Positions 11,900 through 52,785 are shown, counted from the stretch's first letter. The stretch: DNA of 64,000 bases from an uncultured bacterium (GCA_902761735.1 CACWLL010000005.1:35639-99638); one strand, 5' to 3'. The notes: generated from the letters alone by a model not told the origin. Made by a program: numbers and translations.

Positions 11900-12139
11900 A
11901 TCCTGTCCCTATATATTTTGTATTTACATTAACGTTCTTTATAATAACCCAAAAACATTTAAATGTTAAATTATATATGTACTAATATTACAAAACTGTT
12001 ATATTTGTAATATCAAAATGAATGAAATTTACCATAAAATCTAATAATAATCCGTATATTTTGTAAAAACAACATCTTTATGATAACATTACAAACGAAA
12101 ATAAAATCTTTAAATAAGTTCACAGAGGGAGTTTACAAA

Positions 12140-13159
12140 ATGGAAAAATTTATAAAAAAATACGCAAATATGAAAACAGTATTTTATATTCTTTTAGGAT
12201 TACTTATTTTATTTATGTGGAAAAATCCTGAAATGACTTTGATGTTGTTTGTTTCATTAGTATTCGCCAGTTCACTTAACCCTCTCGTTGACAAATTAAA
12301 TAAAAAAATCAACCGAACAGCAGCAACCTCTATTGTATTATTCGGCTCAATCGGATTGCTCGCACTATTTATTATTCCTATATTTGCGTTATGTATTTAT
12401 CAAATAGGATTATTTGCAAAAGAATTTCCTCAGTACATAAACAATATAAACCAAATTGTACACACATACCCTATTATACATAAATTAGGAATTATGAACA
12501 TTAAATTTGCAGATGTATTTACTCAAGCTGCAAACTATTCTTCAAGCTTTATTGATGCCGTTATGAGTTTGCTCGGCAAATTAAGTTCACTTTCATTATA
12601 TTTTTTACTTACCGTAATTTTCACATTCTTTTTGCTTGTTGACAAAGATTACATAAGAAACTCAATATTAAAATTTTTCCCGTCCTCATTAAGAAATAAA
12701 ACAAACGGGATAATCAAAATAGTAAGTCAAAGAATTGGCGGATATGTAATTGCTCAAACTTGTGCCATCACATCAGTAGGTATAATAATGATAATAGGAC
12801 TATGGTTGTTTAAAATTCCATACGCATTACTGTTGGGTTTAATCACTGCCGTACTGGATATTATACCTGTTGTCGGACCGGCAATCGGACTTATAATTTG
12901 CTTGGTTGCAACTTATGAAGTAGGTATTAGAGCCCTTCTTGTTGTAACATTAGTTTTTGTAATAGCCCAATTTGTAGAAAATAATTTTGTAAGACCTTAT
13001 GCATACGGTAAATTAATGAACTTGCATCCAATGCTGATATTTATATTTTTGTTTCTCGGAACAAAATATTTCGGACTTGTAGGAACTCTGTTTGCACCGG
13101 CTATTGCGGCAACGGTATGTGTCCTTGTCGAAGAACTTTATATTAAGAATTTAAAATAA
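12140..13159 (+). CDS. AI-2E/PerM family membrane transporter
   Basis: Multi-pass membrane protein with DIIPVVGP and the family's C-terminal conserved region. Start set at the ATG after the GAGGGAG RBS. Confidence 0.75.
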   Translation: MEKFIKKYANMKTVFYILLGLLILFMWKNPEMTLMLFVSLVFASSLNPLVDKLNKKINRTAATSIVLFGSIGLLALFIIPIFALCIYQIGLFAKEFPQYINNINQIVHTYPIIHKLGIMNIKFADVFTQAANYSSSFIDAVMSLLGKLSSLSLYFLLTVIFTFFLLVDKDYIRNSILKFFPSSLRNKTNGIIKIVSQRIGGYVIAQTCAITSVGIIMIIGLWLFKIPYALLLGLITAVLDIIPVVGPAIGLIICLVATYEVGIRALLVVTLVFVIAQFVENNFVRPYAYGKLMNLHPMLIFIFLFLGTKYFGLVGTLFAPAIAATVCVLVEELYIKNLK

Positions 13160-13199
13160 AATTCGCGTAAATTTTATATTCATATTATTTAATTTTAAC

Positions 13200-13217
13200 T
13201 ACGACTCTTTTTGTCGT
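13200..13217. repeat. left copy of an 18-nt inverted repeat (hairpin TACGACTCTTTTTGTCGT)
   Basis: Its exact reverse complement occurs at 16492..16509. Each copy is itself an ACGAC/GTCGT hairpin. Confidence 0.7.
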
Positions 13218-13252
13218 AGTTGTGTTATATTATGATAATATAAGGAGAAACA

Positions 13253-14218
13253 ATGTCGAGATTAAATAAAGCAAATGAAATTATAGAACTTGCAATTTTG
13301 ATGCAAAACAGTTATTGCGGTTTAACTTTAGATGATATTGCACATGAGTTTGAATGTTCTCGCCGCAGTGCAGAGAGAATGAAAGCTGTTTTGATTGAAA
13401 AATTTGGGAATAAAATTGAAGAAGTAAACAACGAAAAAGACAAGAAAAAACGCTGGAGATTTAAAAAAGGTACAATGAATTGGCTTATATATTTTACATC
13501 AAGCGACTTTGCAAATCTTGAACTTTGTAAAAAATCTCTTAAATCCCCGACAAAACAAAAAGAAATGGATGAACTTATTGAAAAAATCAAAGCACTTAAC
13601 CCTCAAAATGTTTCTAATGTTGATGTGGATGAAATTTTATCTACCCAAGCTTATGCTGTAAGACAAGGATTTAGAGAAAATATAAAACTTGAAACCTTGC
13701 AAATAATAAATGATGCAATTCTTTGTCAAAAACAAATTGTTATAAAGTATGCAGATATGGATAATGAATTTGCAATCAACCCTTATGGAATTTTACATTC
13801 CGACAGGGTTTATTTAATTGCTTACAATATTTTTGCTAATGCAATTTGGACATACAGAATTTCAAAAATTAAAGAAATAAAATTGACTGATAATTATTTT
13901 GATAAAGATGAAAGTTTCAATATGGAAGAATATTGTGCAAGGTCATTTGGAGTTTATCAGGGAGAAATTTTTGATGTCGTTCTGCAATTTGATAAAGAAT
14001 GTACAGATGATGCAAAAGAATACTTTTTCCATCCAACCCAAAGTGGGAAATTGAATGATGATGGTACTTACACTTTATCATTAAAGGCAAGCGGAGAATT
14101 TGAGATTATTACAGAAATTTTAAAATGGCGCAGCAGCGTAAAAATTCTCTCCCCTCAAAGTTTAAAAGATACTTATAACAAAACAGTAAAAGAAATGTAT
14201 AAACAGATAAAGGAATAA
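13253..14218 (+). CDS. WYL-domain transcriptional regulator (HTH-WYL-WCX architecture)
   Basis: N-terminal HTH (LTLDDIAHEFECSRRSAERM). Central WYL-like block (IVIKYADMDNEFAINPYGILHSDRVYLIAYN...WTYRISKIKEIKL). C-terminal extension. Confidence 0.8.
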   Translation: MSRLNKANEIIELAILMQNSYCGLTLDDIAHEFECSRRSAERMKAVLIEKFGNKIEEVNNEKDKKKRWRFKKGTMNWLIYFTSSDFANLELCKKSLKSPTKQKEMDELIEKIKALNPQNVSNVDVDEILSTQAYAVRQGFRENIKLETLQIINDAILCQKQIVIKYADMDNEFAINPYGILHSDRVYLIAYNIFANAIWTYRISKIKEIKLTDNYFDKDESFNMEEYCARSFGVYQGEIFDVVLQFDKECTDDAKEYFFHPTQSGKLNDDGTYTLSLKASGEFEIITEILKWRSSVKILSPQSLKDTYNKTVKEMYKQIKE

Positions 14219-14220
14219 CT

Positions 14221-14628
14221 ATGTTAATATGCGAAGATTTATTATGTATTTTGCAGGATAAATATAAAAATATTTCAGAAGAACTTTTTCCTGAACTAAA
14301 AAATGACAGTATTAAAAAAGGGTTTATCACTTTAGATAAAACCGATATAAAAAATGCTTTAATAAATAGTAAAAATTGTACTTTCAATGTTGTAAAATCA
14401 GAGAAAAAAGATGCATTAAATATATTTATAAATGCTTATAATATAGAAAAAACAAAAAATTTAATTTTATTTATCATGCATGATGAAAATTTAACATTAT
14501 ATGAAATCTCTGAAATAATCAGCTTCATAACAAAAAACATCAATCCTTCAACCTACGTTATTGTTTGCGATTTTATAGATAAATCAGTAAAAAATCAAAT
14601 AAAATTAGTATCACTCAATCTTGTATAA
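14221..14628 (+). CDS. small protein resembling the FtsZ C-terminal half (H7, T7 loop, C-terminal subdomain), 135 aa
   Basis: ATG lies 2 nt after the WYL stop. Near gap-free blocks align to this window's FtsZ: GFITLDKTDIKNAL vs [14 protein letters not shown]; NLILFIMHDENLTLYEISEII vs [21 protein letters not shown]; YVIVCDFIDKSVKNQIKLVSL vs [22 protein letters not shown]. Confidence 0.55.
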   Translation: MLICEDLLCILQDKYKNISEELFPELKNDSIKKGFITLDKTDIKNALINSKNCTFNVVKSEKKDALNIFINAYNIEKTKNLILFIMHDENLTLYEISEIISFITKNINPSTYVIVCDFIDKSVKNQIKLVSLNLV

Positions 14629-14638
14629 AGGAGGAATT

Positions 14639-15169
14639 ATGAAAAGAAAAAATAAATCAGATAAAAATTATAAAATATGGTTAGAAAATATAAAAAAAGA
14701 ACTTAATGAAAAAGAACCATTACTAAAAAATATTCCGGACATTGAAAAATGGAAAACCAGCCCGTCATCAGATATTGATACTCCGATATTAAAGAATGAA
14801 ACGTGGGTAAAAATTGAAGGTTCAGGGTTTACACGATATGAAATAAGCAGTTTAGGCAGAGTTAAATATCTTGGGAAAATTGTTCCTCAAAAAAATAGGA
14901 CTGAAAATGGTAAAGAATGTATTGGCTATCTGGTGTTAGATAAAGAAGCCTTTCAAAAAAAATATCCGAAAGCACCTTGCGGGTTTACCACAACAACACA
15001 TGTTTATTCTCTTGTTGCCTATGCATTTTTAGGGAAAAAAGAAAAAGACGGTTATCAAGTGCATCATATTACAAATAATGGTTATGATAATAGTATTGAT
15101 AATCTTGTATTATTAGACAAAGATGAACATTCTTTGATACACGGATTTAAAATTGGGACTTGGAAATAA
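14639..15169 (+). CDS. NUMOD4-HNH homing-type endonuclease
   Basis: AGGAGG RBS. WVKIEGSGFTRYEISSLGRVK (NUMOD4-like). GYQVHHITNNGYDNSIDNLVLLDKDEHSLIH (HNH). Confidence 0.8.
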   Translation: MKRKNKSDKNYKIWLENIKKELNEKEPLLKNIPDIEKWKTSPSSDIDTPILKNETWVKIEGSGFTRYEISSLGRVKYLGKIVPQKNRTENGKECIGYLVLDKEAFQKKYPKAPCGFTTTTHVYSLVAYAFLGKKEKDGYQVHHITNNGYDNSIDNLVLLDKDEHSLIHGFKIGTWK

Positions 15170-15197
15170 AAAGAGATGTTATGCCTCTGATTTATAA

Positions 15198-15557
15198 ACT
15201 GTATTTATAGGAAATGAAACACCGGAAATTGCGGAGGAACACTTACAAACAAAATTAAAAAATGCTGATTTTTGGCAATTAGTTGCTGATGAAGAACTAA
15301 AAACTGCAATGCAAATGGCAAAAGACACAATATAGATTATTCTGTAATACTCGGTAAAGCCGTTTTTATTTGAGGGACAAAAAATTGTTATATATAAAGA
15401 AATTTTTGAGCTATTGCAAACTCAGACCGGATACAATAAAATTGCAGTAATTGATTCAAATAAATTTTCGACAAACCTGCCTGCACCTTTAGATGAAATT
15501 ACAGAAAAAAGAAATAATAAAATTACAGACACAATAATTGAGTTTATTAATATATAA
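15198..15557 (+). pseudogene. probable decayed coding remnant (one frame broken by in-frame TAG and TAA, with no start codon)
   Basis: A 46-codon and a 68-codon open stretch lie in the same frame. They are separated only by TAG (15333) and TAA (15345). Neither has a usable start or RBS. Confidence 0.35.
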
Positions 15558-15580
15558 GAGAAAATAAATACTTCTTTGAT

Positions 15581-15781
15581 TTGTTTGAAAACTTTGAACA
15601 TTATGTAGATTTCTTTTATCTAAATGACTTATTAATAAATAACGATTATTCAAAAATTAATTTCTTTTTGCCTTTTGATAATTTTAAAAAAAATTCAAAA
15701 CCACAAGATACAACTGAATGGAAAGTCTTTTGTGAAAAGCAGATAGAATTTATAAAAGCTAGAAATAAAAGAATTAAGTAA
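15581..15781 (+). CDS. hypothetical 66-aa ORF (TTG start), possibly another remnant
   Basis: ORF only. Weak start context. Confidence 0.25.
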   Translation: MFENFEHYVDFFYLNDLLINNDYSKINFFLPFDNFKKNSKPQDTTEWKVFCEKQIEFIKARNKRIK

Positions 15782-15785
15782 TTTA

Positions 15786-16145
15786 CTATTCCATATATTT
15801 TTCTACGCAATTCCTTCTGTCGCATTCGTTTGTGGTAATTTTGTTGCAGTAGGTATTAATTTTTAATATAATTTCGTGGTCTTTTTTGTTGCGTTCATAA
15901 ATATAACCACGCACACAATTTTCAAAAGCTCCGTTTTGTGCGATATTTTGTGCAGTGCAATAGTCTGTACCATTTTTATAATTTATTTTCAACGACTTTG
16001 GAACAGAAATCTTCAAAGGTTCAACACTAACTTTTTCAGATTCATCTATCCTTGAATTATTATTTTGATTTGACTTATATTTCTCAAATGATTGAACAAC
16101 AAACAAAAATATAGAAATTATTATTATAATAAGTAAATTTTTCAT
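15786..16145 (-). CDS. secreted or membrane-anchored cysteine-rich small protein, 119 aa
   Basis: N-terminal hydrophobic helix MKNLLIIIIISIFLFVV. Six Cys in the C-terminal 60 aa. Confidence 0.55.
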   Translation of the reverse strand: MKNLLIIIIISIFLFVVQSFEKYKSNQNNNSRIDESEKVSVEPLKISVPKSLKINYKNGTDYCTAQNIAQNGAFENCVRGYIYERNKKDHEIILKINTYCNKITTNECDRRNCVEKYME

Positions 16146-16237
16146 AATTTTTCAAGGTATCTGTCACATTCATCAAATCCGGTAATAATTTTATTTTTGA
16201 TTTCAATCTGTCCGGAATTAAAATCAAATTTCAACAT
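16142..16237 (-). CDS. 31-aa micro-ORF translationally coupled on both sides
   Basis: Not in the supplied ORF track. MLKFDFNSGQIEIKNKIITGFDECDRYLEKL read on the minus strand. Its ATG overlaps the upstream TAA by 1 nt, and its TGA overlaps the downstream ATG (ATGA). Confidence 0.35.
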   Translation of the reverse strand: MLKFDFNSGQIEIKNKIITGFDECDRYLEKL

Positions 16238-16455
16238 TATAAGCCTCTTATTTCCGAATTAATTCTACGACATTCTTCAAGAGTTTCCTGCTTAATTTTT
16301 TCAGATTCGGTTTTAATACGTTTTAAAATTTCAGACTCATAAGTCATTTTCTGTGCTTTCAATTCTGCATCAGAAATAATCATTTCAGCTCTATCATATG
16401 CATCTTTTAAAATTTGTTTCTTCACTTTAAATAAAAATTTTCCGAACATTTTCAT
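16237..16455 (-). CDS. 72-aa coiled-coil protein
   Basis: Charged heptad-like sequence. AGGAG-type RBS upstream. Confidence 0.5.
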   Translation of the reverse strand: MKMFGKFLFKVKKQILKDAYDRAEMIISDAELKAQKMTYESEILKRIKTESEKIKQETLEECRRINSEIRGL

Positions 16456-16491
16456 CTCCTTATCTTCATATTTTAATTATAAGGGAGAAGC

Positions 16492-16509
16492 ACGACAAAA
16501 AGAGTCGTA
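16492..16509. repeat. right copy of the 18-nt inverted repeat (ACGACAAAAAGAGTCGTA)
   Basis: Exact reverse complement of 13200..13217. Confidence 0.7.
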
Positions 16510-16577
16510 ACGAGCTGCACTTAACCTACAACTTTTTCAATTTTACGATTCGGCATAATACGAAATATCCGCAAAAA

Positions 16578-17213
16578 TTAAGAAAATTCTTCTATTTTGT
16601 CTATAATATTGCGGAAAGATTCAAAATAATAATGTTTTATTAAATTTTTGTTGCAATATTGGTGTAATTTTTTTGTTGCAAACAAAGTATGTGCTTTACT
16701 TGCTATACACAAATCACTCGTACCGTCACCAATGTAACAAAACTCTTTCTCTTTAACCTTATCACATTTGCACATACCGGCTTTTTTATCGCAATTCAAA
16801 TTATGATACGGAAATTCTATTTTAAACTTGTTGTTCTCATAGATAATATGATTGGCATAAACCGGAATATCATTTAAATTAAATCGTTCAAGTGTTTTAT
16901 GAATGAATAAATCAAATCCATCACTTAATATGGTAAACTTAATATTTTTTGATTTTACATATTCTATAAATTCCAAAAAAGTTTGGTCGATTTCAATACT
17001 TTGAATATAATCGTCTAATTGTCTTGGGGTAATTTCCGGTAATAAGCCAACCTGAATAACCGCATTTTCCATTGATGAAATTTTACCGTCTATCCAAAGT
17101 TTTTCAGATTCAAGCCATTTATCACCGGTATATTGTTCAAAAAAACTGTTCACCGCATCACTTTTGGTAATAGTTCCATCAAAATCACAATATATTGCTT
17201 CCAAATTTTTCAT
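16578..17213 (-). CDS. HAD-IB phosphatase, MtnX/phosphoserine-phosphatase-like
   Basis: DFDGTIT nucleophile motif, GDGTSDL motif IV, and a Cys-rich cap (CDKKAGMCKCDK) as in MtnX-type enzymes. Confidence 0.7.
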   Translation of the reverse strand: MKNLEAIYCDFDGTITKSDAVNSFFEQYTGDKWLESEKLWIDGKISSMENAVIQVGLLPEITPRQLDDYIQSIEIDQTFLEFIEYVKSKNIKFTILSDGFDLFIHKTLERFNLNDIPVYANHIIYENNKFKIEFPYHNLNCDKKAGMCKCDKVKEKEFCYIGDGTSDLCIASKAHTLFATKKLHQYCNKNLIKHYYFESFRNIIDKIEEFS

Positions 17214-17450
17214 AATTTAATTATACTATAAACTAATTTTTATTTTATTTTATTTTAGATAAAAATTTTCGGGTTTAAAACTCTTTCCACGAATAATTTT
17301 AGTCCACGTATCAATATTAAGCAAGAATAACAAACGTCATTTTATCCTTTAGGTTGGATTTATGCCTTGTTCGTTTGCCTTTAAAGAGTTTTCAGTTATT
17401 TGGCATATAAAGTATTTAACACTGGGTATAGGATTAAATTAACTATAAAA

Positions 17451-19061
17451 TTAAGATATTTTGGCTGCTTCGTTCACAATAGGTAAAATAAAACCAAATA
17501 CATTACTATTATCCTCATAACTTCTTGCATATATATTACCGTTATGAGCATCTATTATTTGTTTGGACAGATATAAACCAAGCCCAACTCCAACTTTATT
17601 AAATTTTGCAGCATGCGAAACATATTTTTTAAACAAGTTATTCATTGTTTCAGGGTTTATATACGCACTTTTATTTTTTGCTTCAAATCTTATACCATTT
17701 TTATCTTGTTCTATAGTAACAATAATTTGAGTATTATCGTATGCATAAGAAATAGAATTTCCTAAGATATTTGTAATAACTCTCTTTATCTGCATTCTGT
17801 CAATATTTGTATCAAAATCAATACCTTCTGTACACAGACGAAGAGTTACATTTTTTTCTTTTAGCATTGCTTCTAATTCGTTAATTGATTCTTCAGCGAG
17901 GGAAATTATATTACACTTTTCATAATTTAGCACATAATCACCATTTTCGTATTTGTATGTGCTTAATAGTGTAGAAAGCATCTCATACATAAAATTACAG
18001 GAATCTTTAGTTAGGGAAAGCAATTCTTTTTGCTCATTATTAAGTGGTCCCATATGTTCGTTTAACACCAAATCAAGAGCCTTTATTTGTGCAATTGTAG
18101 GAGTCTTCAAATCATGAGTTAAAGTTGCAACATAAGTTTCTCTTTGTTCTAATGCTGTTTTTTCCGCATCAATATCTCTTGCTACACTGCATATTCCGAT
18201 AACTTTTTTTTCATGATTTATAATAGGGCATTTTGTTACCTTAAACCAGCGTTTATCATTATTTTTTAGGGTAATCTGCTTTTCTCTGGCTATACATCTG
18301 CAGTGTGTAATAATTTCACTGTCTTCCTTTGCAATTTCATCTGCTCTTTTTTCCTTATAATGCCATTTATTAGCATTATCCAAATCAGATAAGCCAAGAA
18401 AATCCATTGCCATTTTGTTTTCATAGGTTACATTACCATTTAAGTCTTTTAAATACATTGCAATTGGCATTCCTAAAACTACAGAACGAAACATTTGTTC
18501 CTGATCCTCAAGTTCACTTTTTAGTTTTTCTTCTTGCGTAACATCTTTTGCTATTATCAATACTCCGAAAACACCTTTCGTTAATACTAACGGAGTAGCT
18601 GTTATATCATAAATTTTATTACTGTTTTCTATTTGTATTTTTTTTCTGATAACTTTCCCTTTTAAAGTTTTTCTGCTTATTTTATTAATTTTTGCGGCAT
18701 CTTTTGGTGTAAATAAATCAGTTTCAGTTTTTCCTTTTATTTCATCGAGAGTTTTATTTACAGTATCTAAAAAAAGCTGATTACAATACAAATATCTACC
18801 TTTATAATCTTTATACACAATTAAATCTTGCGAAGAATTACATATAGCACTTATTAATTCTTTGTGGAATAATGCCTTGTTTTTGATATAACCTTGCAAT
18901 ACATAAAAAATAAGCATTAAACTTATTGCTATAATAGAATGTAGTTTAGTTTGCGGATTAAAATATACCCAGAATATAAAAAATACTACCGCAATTTGTA
19001 ATACCCATTTCAAACTAATCAATAAATTTTCGCTGTTTTTAAATAAATTTTTATAAATCAT
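17451..19061 (-). CDS. PAS-domain sensor histidine kinase
   Basis: Two N-terminal TM helices and two PAS-like segments. H-box LTHDLKTPT. ATPase N/G boxes (GNSISYA, GVGLGLYLS). Confidence 0.9.
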   Translation of the reverse strand: MIYKNLFKNSENLLISLKWVLQIAVVFFIFWVYFNPQTKLHSIIAISLMLIFYVLQGYIKNKALFHKELISAICNSSQDLIVYKDYKGRYLYCNQLFLDTVNKTLDEIKGKTETDLFTPKDAAKINKISRKTLKGKVIRKKIQIENSNKIYDITATPLVLTKGVFGVLIIAKDVTQEEKLKSELEDQEQMFRSVVLGMPIAMYLKDLNGNVTYENKMAMDFLGLSDLDNANKWHYKEKRADEIAKEDSEIITHCRCIAREKQITLKNNDKRWFKVTKCPIINHEKKVIGICSVARDIDAEKTALEQRETYVATLTHDLKTPTIAQIKALDLVLNEHMGPLNNEQKELLSLTKDSCNFMYEMLSTLLSTYKYENGDYVLNYEKCNIISLAEESINELEAMLKEKNVTLRLCTEGIDFDTNIDRMQIKRVITNILGNSISYAYDNTQIIVTIEQDKNGIRFEAKNKSAYINPETMNNLFKKYVSHAAKFNKVGVGLGLYLSKQIIDAHNGNIYARSYEDNSNVFGFILPIVNEAAKIS

Positions 19062-31148: not shown

Positions 31149-33233
31149 CTATTCATTTACAATACCGAGTACACGAATAAACTCGTCTATTGTTGTCATA
31201 CCTCTTATAATATGTCCTTTGCATGATTCTGCAAGAGTTGTCATACCATTTTGGACAGCCAATTCTTCTATTTCCAAATCATGAGCACCCGTCGCAATCA
31301 ATTTTCTTATTGCTTTGTTAATTGTCATAATTTCATATATACCTAATCGACCTTTATATCCTGTAAAATTACACTTATTACAGCCTTTTGCTCTGTACAT
31401 AGGCGTCTTAATTAATTTTTCAATTTCCTCTTCATCTACAGTAATTCTTGAAACTTCTTCTCTTGTCGGGAAATATTCTTCTTTACAATCATCACACAAT
31501 CGTCTGACTAAACGTTGTGCTATTACACCTGATAAAGTTGAAGAAACCAAATAATCTTTAGCACCCATTTCCACCATACGAGTAACTGTTGCCGCAGCAG
31601 AATTTGTGTGGACCGTACTCAACACCAAGTGACCTGTTAAAGCGGCCGAAATAGCAATTTCCAAGGTTTCATAATCACGGATTTCACCAACAAGTATGAT
31701 GTCAGGGTCCTGACGAAGTATAGCTCTCATACATGATGCGAATGTGATACCTGCTTTTGCATTTATCTGAGATTGGTTAATACCCTCTAACTTAATTTCA
31801 ATCGGGTCCTCAATTGTAGTAATATTAACATCTTCATCATTTAAACTTTTTAATACTGAGTATAACGTCGTTGTTTTACCTGAACCTGTCGGGCCTGAAG
31901 TAAGGATAATTCCGTTAGGACAAGTAACCATATTTTTAATTTTTGCTATATCTTCTTCAGTACCGCCAACCAAACTTATATTTTTATCTGCAGCATTTAA
32001 AGACACAGCCGGTGCCAAAATACGAATACAAACCTTTTCTTTACCGGAAACAGGCAATGTGTTTATACGAAAGTCATAAGATTGGTTTTTATACTTTATA
32101 GAAAAAGTACCATCCTGAGGTCTTCTGTGCTCAGCAATATTCATTCTTGCCAATACCTTGAAACGAGATATTACGGAAGTTTCAACTTTAGACGGAATAT
32201 CAAGAACTTTTGATAACATACCGTCTTTTCTGTATCTTACAATATATCCTTCCAATCTCGGCTCAATATGGATATCCGAAACGTGGGTATCAATACCCGT
32301 TGTAATAATTTGATTTACAAATTTTGCGATAGAACCGCTTGATTCTTGTAATTCATTATCAACCTGTTGCCACAGAGATTCTTCAACCTGAAGAGCAGAG
32401 GTTTCATCTTCAATATCTTTAATTATTTTCTGAGTTTCTTTCTTATGCTCGGAAAAGAAAGTTTCCATACAAATTGTGAACTCATAGTGAGTCATCAATA
32501 ATTGCTTTGGATTTTGTCCCGTTAAATATATTACTTCTTTTAATACATCCGGTTTAACAGGAGAAACAACACCTATAATTAATGTTTTTCCATCAGATGA
32601 AACCGGAACAACTTTGTTATTTTTGATAAAATCCTCAGGTAGCAAACCGATATATGAGGATTGTTTTGATAACTGGTCAGCAGTTACAAAATCGTATCCT
32701 GTCTGAGCATGCAAAACCTCTTTTAACTGCTCAAGAGTAATAAACCCAAGCTTGAACAACATAGAACCTACAGGGATTTTCTGACGTTTACTTTCTGCTA
32801 ATGCCTGAAGTAATTGTACATCAGTAATATAACCCTTTTCTATAAAAAGTTCCCCTAATTTTGATTGTGGTTGATTTGCAACGTTAACACCGGAAGAAGA
32901 ACCACCACCAGTAAAAGCATCTTGAATATTTTGAGTAGCTTCATCAACGGTTTCCAATGGATTAGTAACAAAACCACCGGAAGGTTTCAAACTATCAATC
33001 AAATCTTCCAAATCCTTATCCGGAACCTGAATAAATTTTATAGGATACGAAAATTTTTGTCTTAATTTTTCATTAATAGTATCTTTATCAGATGTTGAAC
33101 CAATTGCCACAAACAAAAACTTGTCTTTTACACTGATAGGAACAAACTTATGTTGTTCCATCAGTGTTTTATCGACTTGATTTAAAATTTGCTTATTTAT
33201 ACTGTTTTTTAGTCTGTTTTGCAGTTCATTCAT
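31149..33233 (-). CDS. pilB: type IV pilus/T2SS assembly ATPase (GspE/PilB family) with extended N-terminal domains
   Basis: Walker A GPTGSGKTT, Asp/His boxes, tetracysteine CDDC...CNKC, and N-terminal T2SSE_N/MshEN-like repeats. Confidence 0.92.
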   Translation of the reverse strand: MNELQNRLKNSINKQILNQVDKTLMEQHKFVPISVKDKFLFVAIGSTSDKDTINEKLRQKFSYPIKFIQVPDKDLEDLIDSLKPSGGFVTNPLETVDEATQNIQDAFTGGGSSSGVNVANQPQSKLGELFIEKGYITDVQLLQALAESKRQKIPVGSMLFKLGFITLEQLKEVLHAQTGYDFVTADQLSKQSSYIGLLPEDFIKNNKVVPVSSDGKTLIIGVVSPVKPDVLKEVIYLTGQNPKQLLMTHYEFTICMETFFSEHKKETQKIIKDIEDETSALQVEESLWQQVDNELQESSGSIAKFVNQIITTGIDTHVSDIHIEPRLEGYIVRYRKDGMLSKVLDIPSKVETSVISRFKVLARMNIAEHRRPQDGTFSIKYKNQSYDFRINTLPVSGKEKVCIRILAPAVSLNAADKNISLVGGTEEDIAKIKNMVTCPNGIILTSGPTGSGKTTTLYSVLKSLNDEDVNITTIEDPIEIKLEGINQSQINAKAGITFASCMRAILRQDPDIILVGEIRDYETLEIAISAALTGHLVLSTVHTNSAAATVTRMVEMGAKDYLVSSTLSGVIAQRLVRRLCDDCKEEYFPTREEVSRITVDEEEIEKLIKTPMYRAKGCNKCNFTGYKGRLGIYEIMTINKAIRKLIATGAHDLEIEELAVQNGMTTLAESCKGHIIRGMTTIDEFIRVLGIVNE

Positions 33234-51573: not shown

Positions 51574-52785
51574 CTACTTCTTTAAGAAATCAGGAATTTC
51601 TATATTTGAAAAACCTGCTGAAGATGACGGCATTGAACTTCTTCTTGATGGAGTTGATGTAGAAGTGCTTGTAGAAGTACTTACACCTAATCCGCTTGCA
51701 AACGAGTTGTTTGAGAAGAAGTCATTTAACTTGCTAATATCAGGTTTGGCTGTTTGCTCAAGATTTTTCTTAACATCAAATCCTGTTGCAACAACCGTCA
51801 CACTGATAGAATTGTTTTGAATATTTTCATTAACTGCAGTACCGATAATAACTGTTGCGTCCTCAGTAACAGCATCGTGGATAATATTTGCTGCGTCTGA
51901 AATTTCGTGCAATGTCATATCAGGCCCGCCTGTAATATTAACGATAACACCTGTTGCACCGTTAATTGAAGATTCAAGTAATTGAGAGTTAATAGCAATT
52001 TCAGCAGCCTTAACAGCTCTGCCTTCACCTTGTGCAATACCGATACCCATTAACGCTGAACCTGAACCCTGCATTACGCTCTTAACATCGGCAAAGTCAA
52101 CGTTAATCATACCAGGAGTTGTAATGATATCAGAGATACCTTGAACACCTCTTAACAATACTTCATCAACAATCAAGAAAGATTCAGTTAATGAAACTTG
52201 TCTGTCAACTACTTGAAGTAACTTGTCATTTGGAACAACAATAACAGCATCAACACATTCTCTCAATTTTTCAAGACCTTGTTCTGCTTGATTTTGTCTT
52301 TTACGACCTTCCCAATTGAAAGGTTTTGTAACAACGGCAATAGTTAAAATCCCTAATTCTTTAGCAATTTTAGCAACAACAGGAGCTGCACCCGTACCGG
52401 TACCACCGCCCATGCCGGCTGTTATAAATACCATATCAGCGCCGTCCAAAGCCTCAGTGATTTCTTGTTGAGCCTCTTCAGCAGCCTTTTCACCAACCGA
52501 AGGATCGCCGCCTGCACCAAGACCTTCTGTAGACTTGATACCTAACTGAATTTTATTTTTTGTTTGTCCAAATTCCAAAACTTGTAAATCTGTATTCATT
52601 AACCAAAATTCAACACCGGACAGACCATTTTTAATCATTCGGTTAACAGCGTTACCGCCGCCGCCGCCAACACCGACTACTTTAATTTTTGTAGGGTTTA
52701 CACCACTTCTTGCCGGTAGTTCAGGAGCTGAACTTGTTTGAGTTTCATCTTTTTTCGCAAAGATATCTGATACGAAATTTTCCAC
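51574..52785 (-). CDS. ftsZ: cell division GTPase FtsZ
   Basis: [11 protein letters not shown] tubulin signature, T7 INVDFADV, Ser/Thr-rich linker and C-terminal peptide IEIPDFLKK. About 30-aa N-terminal extension. Confidence 0.97.

Follow-up and report, generated by a model that had tools for sequence, protein, structure and literature searches.

SulA, MciZ and lambda Kil are protein inhibitors of FtsZ assembly, and SulA and MciZ bind the bottom, C-terminal face of FtsZ. A different route to division arrest is known from Caulobacter, where the WYL regulator DriD, bound to single-stranded DNA (ssDNA), activates didA (division inhibitor), bapE (endonuclease), recA, recJ, dnaG and its own gene (PMC9186387; PMC10853764), with didA and bapE induced approximately 100-fold (PMC9186387). 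The DriD consensus is ATACGAC(N7)GTCGTAT (PMC10853764). By binding CGAC-N7-GTCG sites, the Acinetobacter WYL regulator DdaA activates recA and the division inhibitor AciT, also during DNA uptake (PMC13010146, where SulA is described too). Here we describe a DriD-type locus within a 64,000-nucleotide stretch of DNA from an uncultured bacterium (CACWLL010000005.1:35639-99638, hereafter the window), in which the regulator gene is directly followed by a 135-residue open reading frame (ORF) homologous to the second half of FtsZ, referred to below as the FtsZ half. Coordinates of all features are collected in Table 1.

The locus shares with DriD-DidA and DdaA-AciT the regulator type, the CGAC-N7-GTCG box and the position of that box over the -35 element; both described systems are SOS-independent checkpoints in whose regulons a division inhibitor is found alongside DNA-processing genes (bapE, recA). 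The difference lies in the effector. DidA, which acts on FtsN, and AciT are both small membrane proteins with no relation to FtsZ, whereas the candidate described here would be cytoplasmic, derived from FtsZ and encoded in the regulator's own operon. With SulA, MciZ and Kil it shares the proposed outcome, blocked head-to-tail assembly (in the case of SulA, on DNA damage), but no sequence or fold relationship, and the FtsZ half would take the face opposite to that used by SulA and MciZ, the GTP-bearing top face, imitating a neighbouring subunit. Other reduced FtsZ variants differ in which part they keep: Agrobacterium tumefaciens FtsZ3, which has no phenotype or localization, retains a partial N-terminal GTPase domain, and FtsZ1/FtsZm-type paralogues lack the linker or C-terminal peptide while retaining the N-terminal GTPase part, the reverse of the present protein, of which only the C-terminal half remains. 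An experimental parallel is the engineered split Staphylococcus aureus FtsZ, whose N- and C-terminal halves dimerize head-to-tail in a GTP-dependent manner (PMC4496089). The interaction is the same as that proposed below, but it involves a laboratory construct rather than a natural, diverged and separately regulated gene.

A stand-alone second half of FtsZ

The FtsZ half starts with an ATG 2 nucleotides past the stop codon of the upstream regulator gene, with a Shine-Dalgarno-like AAGGA 6 nucleotides upstream. Because its ratio of nonsynonymous to synonymous substitution rates (dN/dS) is 0.20-0.33, it is a real gene under purifying selection, more relaxed than that on the regulator (0.07-0.10). 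The earlier note on this DNA had aligned the ORF by eye with the second half of FtsZ, and that likeness was borne out by every method applied. BLASTP against the canonical FtsZ of the same genome aligned residues 34-125 with FtsZ 225-324 (E=2e-6), TIGR00065 ftsZ matched at E=3e-6, and Pfam FtsZ_C (PF12327) matched at E=2.2e-5 with 25.1 bits, slightly below the gathering score of 27. A phmmer search of the PDB with the single sequence retrieved Methanocaldococcus jannaschii FtsZ (E=1.4e-4). When a profile of 24 family members was used instead, FtsZ accounted for the first 48 of 52 PDB matches; in the best of these, Bacillus subtilis FtsZ (E=1.7e-8), profile positions 7-134 align with residues 179-311, corresponding to H7, T7 and the entire C-terminal subdomain.

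An AlphaFold2 model built from a 24-sequence alignment spanning 23-90% identity reached a predicted local distance difference test score (pLDDT) of 83.6 and a predicted template modelling score of 0.80; an alignment of 13 near-identical sequences gave a pLDDT of 46.8 and was discarded. After two N-terminal helices, the model displays the element order S7-H9-S8-H10-S9-S10, as in FtsZ. A Foldseek comparison of this model with the PDB, a check that had been proposed together with the original alignment, returned FtsZ for all of the top 50 matches (E approximately 2e-8, root-mean-square deviation approximately 1.9 Å over 111 columns). By sequence, profile and predicted structure, the FtsZ half is homologous to H7, the T7 loop and the C-terminal subdomain of FtsZ.

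What the protein lacks is equally clear and agrees with what had been noticed earlier, namely that the GTP-binding domain and C-terminal peptide are absent. The tubulin GTPase domain (Pfam Tubulin, PF00091) was not found in the 135-residue ORF, for which the Pfam scan gives FtsZ_C only; the ORF begins at the equivalent of H7, and the adjoining upstream ORF encodes the WYL regulator. At the other end, the protein stops 4 residues past the S10 equivalent and is thus devoid of the linker and of the C-terminal peptide that in FtsZ binds FtsA, SepF or ZipA. Neither SulA nor any other inhibitor family was matched in Pfam, NCBIfam and PHROG scans of the FtsZ half, which yielded FtsZ-related matches only. 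The protein is homologous to FtsZ from H7 via T7 to S10, with the fold, the strand order, the Asp equivalent to S. aureus D213 and the NLTLxE loop kept, but it is not FtsZ itself: it has no nucleotide-binding domain, linker or C-terminal peptide, its T7 motif is kept in part, it possesses invariant residues of its own (discussed below), and its gene resides in a regulator-nuclease operon rather than a division gene cluster.

Word-indexed and exhaustive HMMER searches gathered a family of 55 clusters at 90% identity, or about ten at 50%, with lengths of 122-143 residues. Members reach approximately 25% identity to the window protein, beyond which the next matches are true FtsZ proteins; the automatic annotation of some members by JGI is "cell division GTPase FtsZ". 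The sole match in a named genome is to "Cyanobacteria bacterium UBA3301", and the hosts are apparently gut Melainabacteria. No relatives were found in IMG/VR or, by tblastn, in INPHARED phages and PLSDB plasmids, and a fold search of BFVD gave no significant match, only weak matches to RusA-like folds; a phage or plasmid origin of the FtsZ half was accordingly rejected. The suggestion that this architecture had not been described is consistent with limited literature searches, in which neither a stand-alone C-terminal half of FtsZ nor a link of one to WYL regulators was encountered.

A DriD-type regulator and its island

The protein encoded upstream of the FtsZ half matches DriD (8tp8, 9pfq) over its full length in a phmmer search of the PDB (E=2e-26), and no WYL regulator in the PDB other than DriD matches at E<1. 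The base-reading residues of DriD, R37, E40 and R41, are kept (SRRSAERMK here, GRRTAERMR in DriD), as are the ssDNA-binding residues Y192, R207 and Y240, mutation of which impairs activation by DriD. Upstream of the gene, the left box (TACGAC-TCTTTTT-GTCGTA) represents a perfect core match to the DriD consensus, with a typical AT-rich spacer. It overlaps the -35 position, upstream of a conserved -10 element, and DriD-activated promoters likewise carry the box over -35 (PMC13004042). Fifteen related loci (loci are designated by L numbers) also carry the left box ahead of their WYL gene, and the core of the box is identical to that of the Caulobacter DriD operator across a phylum-level distance. 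At the right end, box, -10 element and ribosome-binding site are arranged as in the left promoter, an arrangement kept in L001, L007, L014 and L024; the two near-identical boxes bracket the island in inverted orientation. Scanning the window with up to 2 mismatches allowed gave 3 matches against 0.72 expected by chance. The third, at 33046 with 2 mismatches, lies within a long ORF at chance level and was set aside, leaving only the two island boxes credible.

On this basis, the operon's regulator is DriD-like with a predicted DriD-box promoter, and the FtsZ half is predicted to be co-transcribed with it and is probably also translationally coupled to it. The third gene of the operon, encoding an HNH_3/NUMOD4 endonuclease, is preceded by a GGAGG ribosome-binding site and has orthologues in the same position in L001, L007, L020, L023 and L024. 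Together with a convergent operon on the opposite strand, the island (about 13168-16510) reads as a compact DriD-type regulon of two convergent operons and two promoters. The gene's place in such a regulator-plus-nuclease island was absent from the earlier note.

This setting recurs throughout the family. Seven lineages were examined (loci L001-L011, L012/L013, L014-16, L017-19, L020-22 and L023), and in all seven the FtsZ half lies downstream of an HTH-WYL-WCX regulator of 309-323 residues, separated by 1-4 nucleotides or overlapping with it, with the exception of L020-22, in which a 205-residue ORF stands in between. HNH-superfamily genes (HNH_3/NUMOD4, DUF6994 or both) follow the FtsZ half in each of the seven. 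The flanking genes, by contrast, vary by locus and include those for an AI-2E transporter, threonyl-tRNA synthetase, an esterase, integrases, DpnII or type I restriction-modification, reverse transcriptase and HipA. A split gene with the GTPase half next door was also considered and rejected: the 205-residue ORF preceding the FtsZ half in L020 has no similarity to tubulin or FtsZ.

Relative to the window, L007 displays protein identities of 88% for the regulator, 67% for the FtsZ half and 49% for the HNH nuclease; in L017 the regulator is 92% identical and the FtsZ half 30%, and the HNH nuclease is not present. Alignment of L017 (4966-8414) with window positions 13186-16026 uncovers a mosaic. 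The DNA of the regulator gene is 90.6% identical, similarity breaks at the regulator stop codon, and it resumes (88%) inside the 3' end of DUF6994; the intervening segment holds the 30%-identical FtsZ half and two DUF6994 genes in L017, versus the FtsZ half and HNH_3 in the window.

Most DriD-like regulators of this type have no FtsZ-half partner (892 regulator matches versus 55 FtsZ-half clusters). In L024/L025 (4949-8360), a regulator of 76% identity with both DriD boxes is followed by HNH_3 and an HNH_3-like gene without an FtsZ half, and in L028 (3132-7608), approximately 4 kilobases from recA, a regulator of 52% identity accompanies DUF6994 and an HNH-like gene, again without an FtsZ half. 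Since these three islands lack it, regulator and nucleases appear to form the core island, into which the FtsZ half has been inserted as an accessory.

Several further details of these loci were recorded. The convergent operon of L024/L025 encodes a WG_beta_rep protein, and the flanks contain type I restriction-modification and Tn7/Mu-like transposition genes. In L028, two adjacent DriD boxes lie between a divergent DUF6994 gene and an operon composed of a 121-residue ORF, the HNH-like gene and the regulator; the convergent genes there encode WG_beta_rep proteins, one of which has an N-terminus homologous to the 72-residue protein of the window. In L002 (9193-9998), the regulator is split into ORFs of 155 and 111 residues, probably by a frameshift or assembly error, with the FtsZ half and HNH gene intact.

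A candidate antagonist of FtsZ and its alternatives

The reading we favour, and to which we would give nearly an even chance, is that the FtsZ half is an ssDNA-induced antagonist of FtsZ that docks its retained bottom face on the GTP face of FtsZ. By analogy with DriD and DdaA, ssDNA arising from DNA damage or from incoming foreign DNA would bind the regulator, which, seated on the DriD box over -35, would activate its own operon. The accumulated FtsZ half would then place its T7 loop (D42), NLTL loop and S9 end on the GTP-bearing top face of FtsZ. Having no top face of its own, it would block further head-to-tail assembly, either sequestering monomers or covering the top ends of filaments, and division would be delayed during the action of the co-expressed HNH-family nucleases on DNA. 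That the protein belongs to a new class of SOS-independent checkpoint effector, a half-subunit inhibitor that is separately expressed, ssDNA-inducible and neighbour-mimicking and that halts division, is a proposal we would place somewhat below even.

The antagonist reading gains support from the DriD-type operon and its box, because such regulators induce division inhibitors, and an operon that joins an FtsZ-derived protein to nucleases fits the DriD/DdaA pattern, since those regulons pair an inhibitor with DNA processing. It gains further, independent support from the split S. aureus FtsZ: because its two halves bind each other, an isolated C-terminal half can engage the top face (PMC4496089). 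The HNH_3 nuclease, which stands without an FtsZ half in L024/L025, evidently needs none, a point that we also count in favour of an antagonist.

The residues retained by the family point in the same direction. The T7 motif of the window ORF is T37-L-D39-K-T-D42, with both Asp residues kept and the Asn replaced by Thr, as had been read from the sequence originally. The 56 sequences behind the column statistics include 36 from the close clade of the window protein itself. D42, equivalent to D213 of S. aureus and D212 of Escherichia coli FtsZ, is kept in 52 of the 56; K40 and I43 are invariant, and E25, N28, C53, K79, I85, L91, L93, I103, D117, I127 and K128 are conserved at 95% or more. Positions shared with FtsZ comprise G34, I36, D42 and I43 in the T7 loop and the start of H8; L91, T92, L93 and E95 in the NLTLxE loop between S8 and H10, which corresponds to the E. 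coli D269-E274 segment; and G116 at the end of S9. The NLTL loop we take to be the E. coli F268-L272 segment of the bottom face. As far as can be judged from alignment, the shared positions fall in elements at or beside the FtsZ subunit interface. In the S. aureus filament, D213 maintains both the T7 loop and the contact that this loop makes with the lower subunit, D210 is a swinging catalytic residue, and the S9 residues M292 and F294 touch the water shell of the lower subunit's nucleotide (10.1101/2021.11.29.470395).

A number of observations nevertheless weigh against an FtsZ antagonist. Within the T7 loop, D39, the equivalent of catalytic D210, is Asp in 33 of the 56 sequences, Asn in 13 and Gln in 8, and the Asn of the motif is not conserved, its position being occupied mostly by Thr or Ser. 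The earlier note had ascribed to the Asp pair the activation of GTP hydrolysis in a neighbouring subunit; with Asp at the catalytic position in only those 33, this does not hold as a property of the family. Among the invariant residues, E25, N28, K40, K79, D117 and K128 are specific to the family and without counterpart in FtsZ, and may point to some other binding partner. Compared with the regulator, the FtsZ half and the nucleases evolve or swap much faster, and a protein that binds a highly conserved surface would not be expected to evolve fast; moreover, the FtsZ half has been exchanged together with the nuclease genes, and the related islands L024, L025 and L028 do without it. The known division inhibitors under DriD or DdaA control are small membrane proteins. 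In this respect, the 119-residue protein of the convergent operon is an alternative candidate for the island's division brake, because inhibitors controlled by DriD/DdaA are classically small, membrane-anchored proteins.

The variability at D39 also shapes what kind of antagonist the FtsZ half might be. Because D42, the NLTLxE loop and the S9 end are conserved and D39 is variable, the family would seem to retain the docking elements and not the catalytic one, and because many members have lost the catalytic Asp, the protein may bind FtsZ without activating GTP hydrolysis. The growing end of an FtsZ filament is the T7-exposing bottom end, which monomers join via their GTP-bound top face (10.1101/2021.11.29.470395). 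A module that has a bottom face alone binds to top (GTP) faces, and its main effect would therefore be to sequester monomers or to cover the shrinking end, not to poison the growing, T7-exposing end sub-stoichiometrically.

If FtsZ is indeed bound, the antagonist would be built from its target's own polymerization interface and would act on the GTP face, opposite to the face used by SulA and MciZ. To our knowledge, it would be the first antagonist of a cytoskeletal polymer to have arisen by truncation of that polymer's subunit; it would also be a natural tool for studying the polarity of FtsZ filaments and a template for inhibitors, peptides or proteins, directed at the top face. The locus would also take the DriD/DdaA-type SOS-independent DNA-damage checkpoint beyond Proteobacteria, to Melainabacteria, and its operator and DNA-reading residues are strikingly conserved.

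Of the alternatives, the one that survives best, although we regard it as unlikely, holds that the partners of the FtsZ half are the island's nucleases rather than FtsZ, with the protein acting as an adaptor, an inhibitor or immunity protein, or a specificity subunit for HNH_3/DUF6994 in a conflict- or defence-type cassette; the T7-like loop, being acidic, might then have found a new use, for instance plugging a metal-dependent active site. This would account for the presence of HNH_3 and/or DUF6994 behind the FtsZ half in all seven lineages, for its exchange with nuclease genes behind a conserved regulator (as in L017, with the regulator at 92% and the FtsZ half at 30%), for its relaxed selection relative to the regulator and for the several invariant polar residues that are not FtsZ-like, and it suits neighbourhoods that include restriction-modification, integrase, reverse transcriptase, HipA and transposon genes. 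It is harder to square with L024/L025, where HNH_3 directly behind the regulator needs no such partner or antitoxin, with the variable nuclease content (one or two HNH_3 genes and zero to two DUF6994 genes beside an FtsZ half that is always single), with the window, which keeps only a remnant of DUF6994, and with the absence of a PADLOC match. An obligate antitoxin or immunity role is difficult to reconcile with a protein that is accessory to the regulator-nuclease core. The specific case of a toxin-antitoxin pair with the HNH nuclease was rejected, as obligate co-occurrence fails in L024/L025. Should FtsZ not be the target, a conserved, stand-alone FtsZ domain tied to HNH-family nucleases would represent a new use of the tubulin/FtsZ C-terminal fold.

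We consider it improbable that the FtsZ half targets or mimics a foreign component, capping PhuZ/TubZ filaments of phages or plasmids or serving as a decoy that senses phage inhibitors of FtsZ and signals to the nucleases. Its fast, cassette-like evolution would fit an arms race, several loci have a defence-island-like neighbourhood, and ssDNA-sensing WYL regulators also answer incoming DNA (DdaA, in natural transformation); the idea is, however, purely inferential, phages of these hosts are not known to carry tubulin homologues, and no related protein was found in IMG/VR, INPHARED, the plasmids or BFVD. A similarly slim chance attaches to a role in modulating the DriD-like regulator, whether by co-activation, anti-activation or feedback. 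No other feature of the family is as constant as the presence of both regulator and FtsZ half, and the gap of 1-4 nucleotides or overlap suggests translational coupling; yet the two proteins do not co-vary, as L017 illustrates, most DriD-like regulators have no FtsZ half, and in L020 the 205-residue ORF parts the two genes. That the FtsZ half is a decaying fragment of an FtsZ paralogue without a function of its own, as a natural deletion allele, related islands without it and the adjoining DUF6994 remnant might suggest, is very improbable given a dN/dS of 0.2-0.33, the length of 122-143 residues and motifs kept in lineages down to approximately 25-30% identity, and a confidently predicted compact fold.

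Features of the island and convergent genes

Table 1. Positions in the window of the island's genes and operators and of the canonical FtsZ gene.
Feature	Position	Strand	Evidence
Left DriD box TACGACTCTTTTTGTCGTA	13200..13218	+	core exactly matches published consensus
DriD-type HTH-WYL-WCX transcription regulator, 321 residues, first gene of operon	13253..14218	+	Pfam WYL, WCX; phmmer on PDB
Stand-alone FtsZ half (H7, T7 loop and C-terminal GTPase-activating subdomain), 135 residues	14221..14628	+	homology, fold, dN/dS, family
HNH_3/NUMOD4 endonuclease, 176 residues, third gene of operon	14639..15169	+	Pfam HNH_3 (E=5e-8), NUMOD4; PHROG HNH endonuclease families
DUF6994 3' remnant, last 74 codons, pseudogene fragment	15557..15778	+	tblastn, 96% identity to C-terminus of second DUF6994 of L017
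Small protein, 119 residues, second gene of convergent operon	15786..16145	-	ORF list; homologues in L017, L020
Coiled-coil protein, 72 residues, first gene of convergent operon	16237..16455	-	weak DivIVA match (E=4e-4), below threshold
Right DriD box TACGACTCTTTTTGTCGTG, predicted to drive convergent operon	16491..16509	-	one mismatch to box pattern
Canonical FtsZ of the same genome (GTPase domain, T7 loop, C-terminal peptide), 403 residues; proposed target	51574..52785	-	ORF translation, pairwise alignment

The convergent operon encodes two small proteins. The 119-residue product possesses an N-terminal hydrophobic segment and a Cys-rich C-terminus ending in NECDRRNC, and no Pfam family was found for it; the 72-residue product is homologous to the N-terminus of a 161-residue protein of L028. 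Between the two operons, behind the HNH gene, the DUF6994 remnant indicates the site of a junction left by deletion or recombination. DUF6994 itself is predicted by the Pfam curators to be an HNH or type IV restriction-like family (PMC11701544). A search with PADLOC-DB v2 left the FtsZ half unmatched; the regulator matched generic WYL models only, and the HNH protein weakly matched a homing-endonuclease model.

An NCBI protein of 72 residues (P0037) represents a natural deletion allele when compared with window positions 14221-14358 and approximately 15976-16055. It fuses the first 46 codons of the FtsZ half to a plus-strand frame within the gene for the 119-residue protein, the deletion removing the greater part of the FtsZ half, the HNH gene and a portion of the 119-residue gene; at least one strain can thus do without the module. 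Finally, G+C content is 27-29% over window positions 12001-18000 versus 33-37% elsewhere, a drop that reaches past the island into the genes for the AI-2E transporter and a HAD hydrolase.

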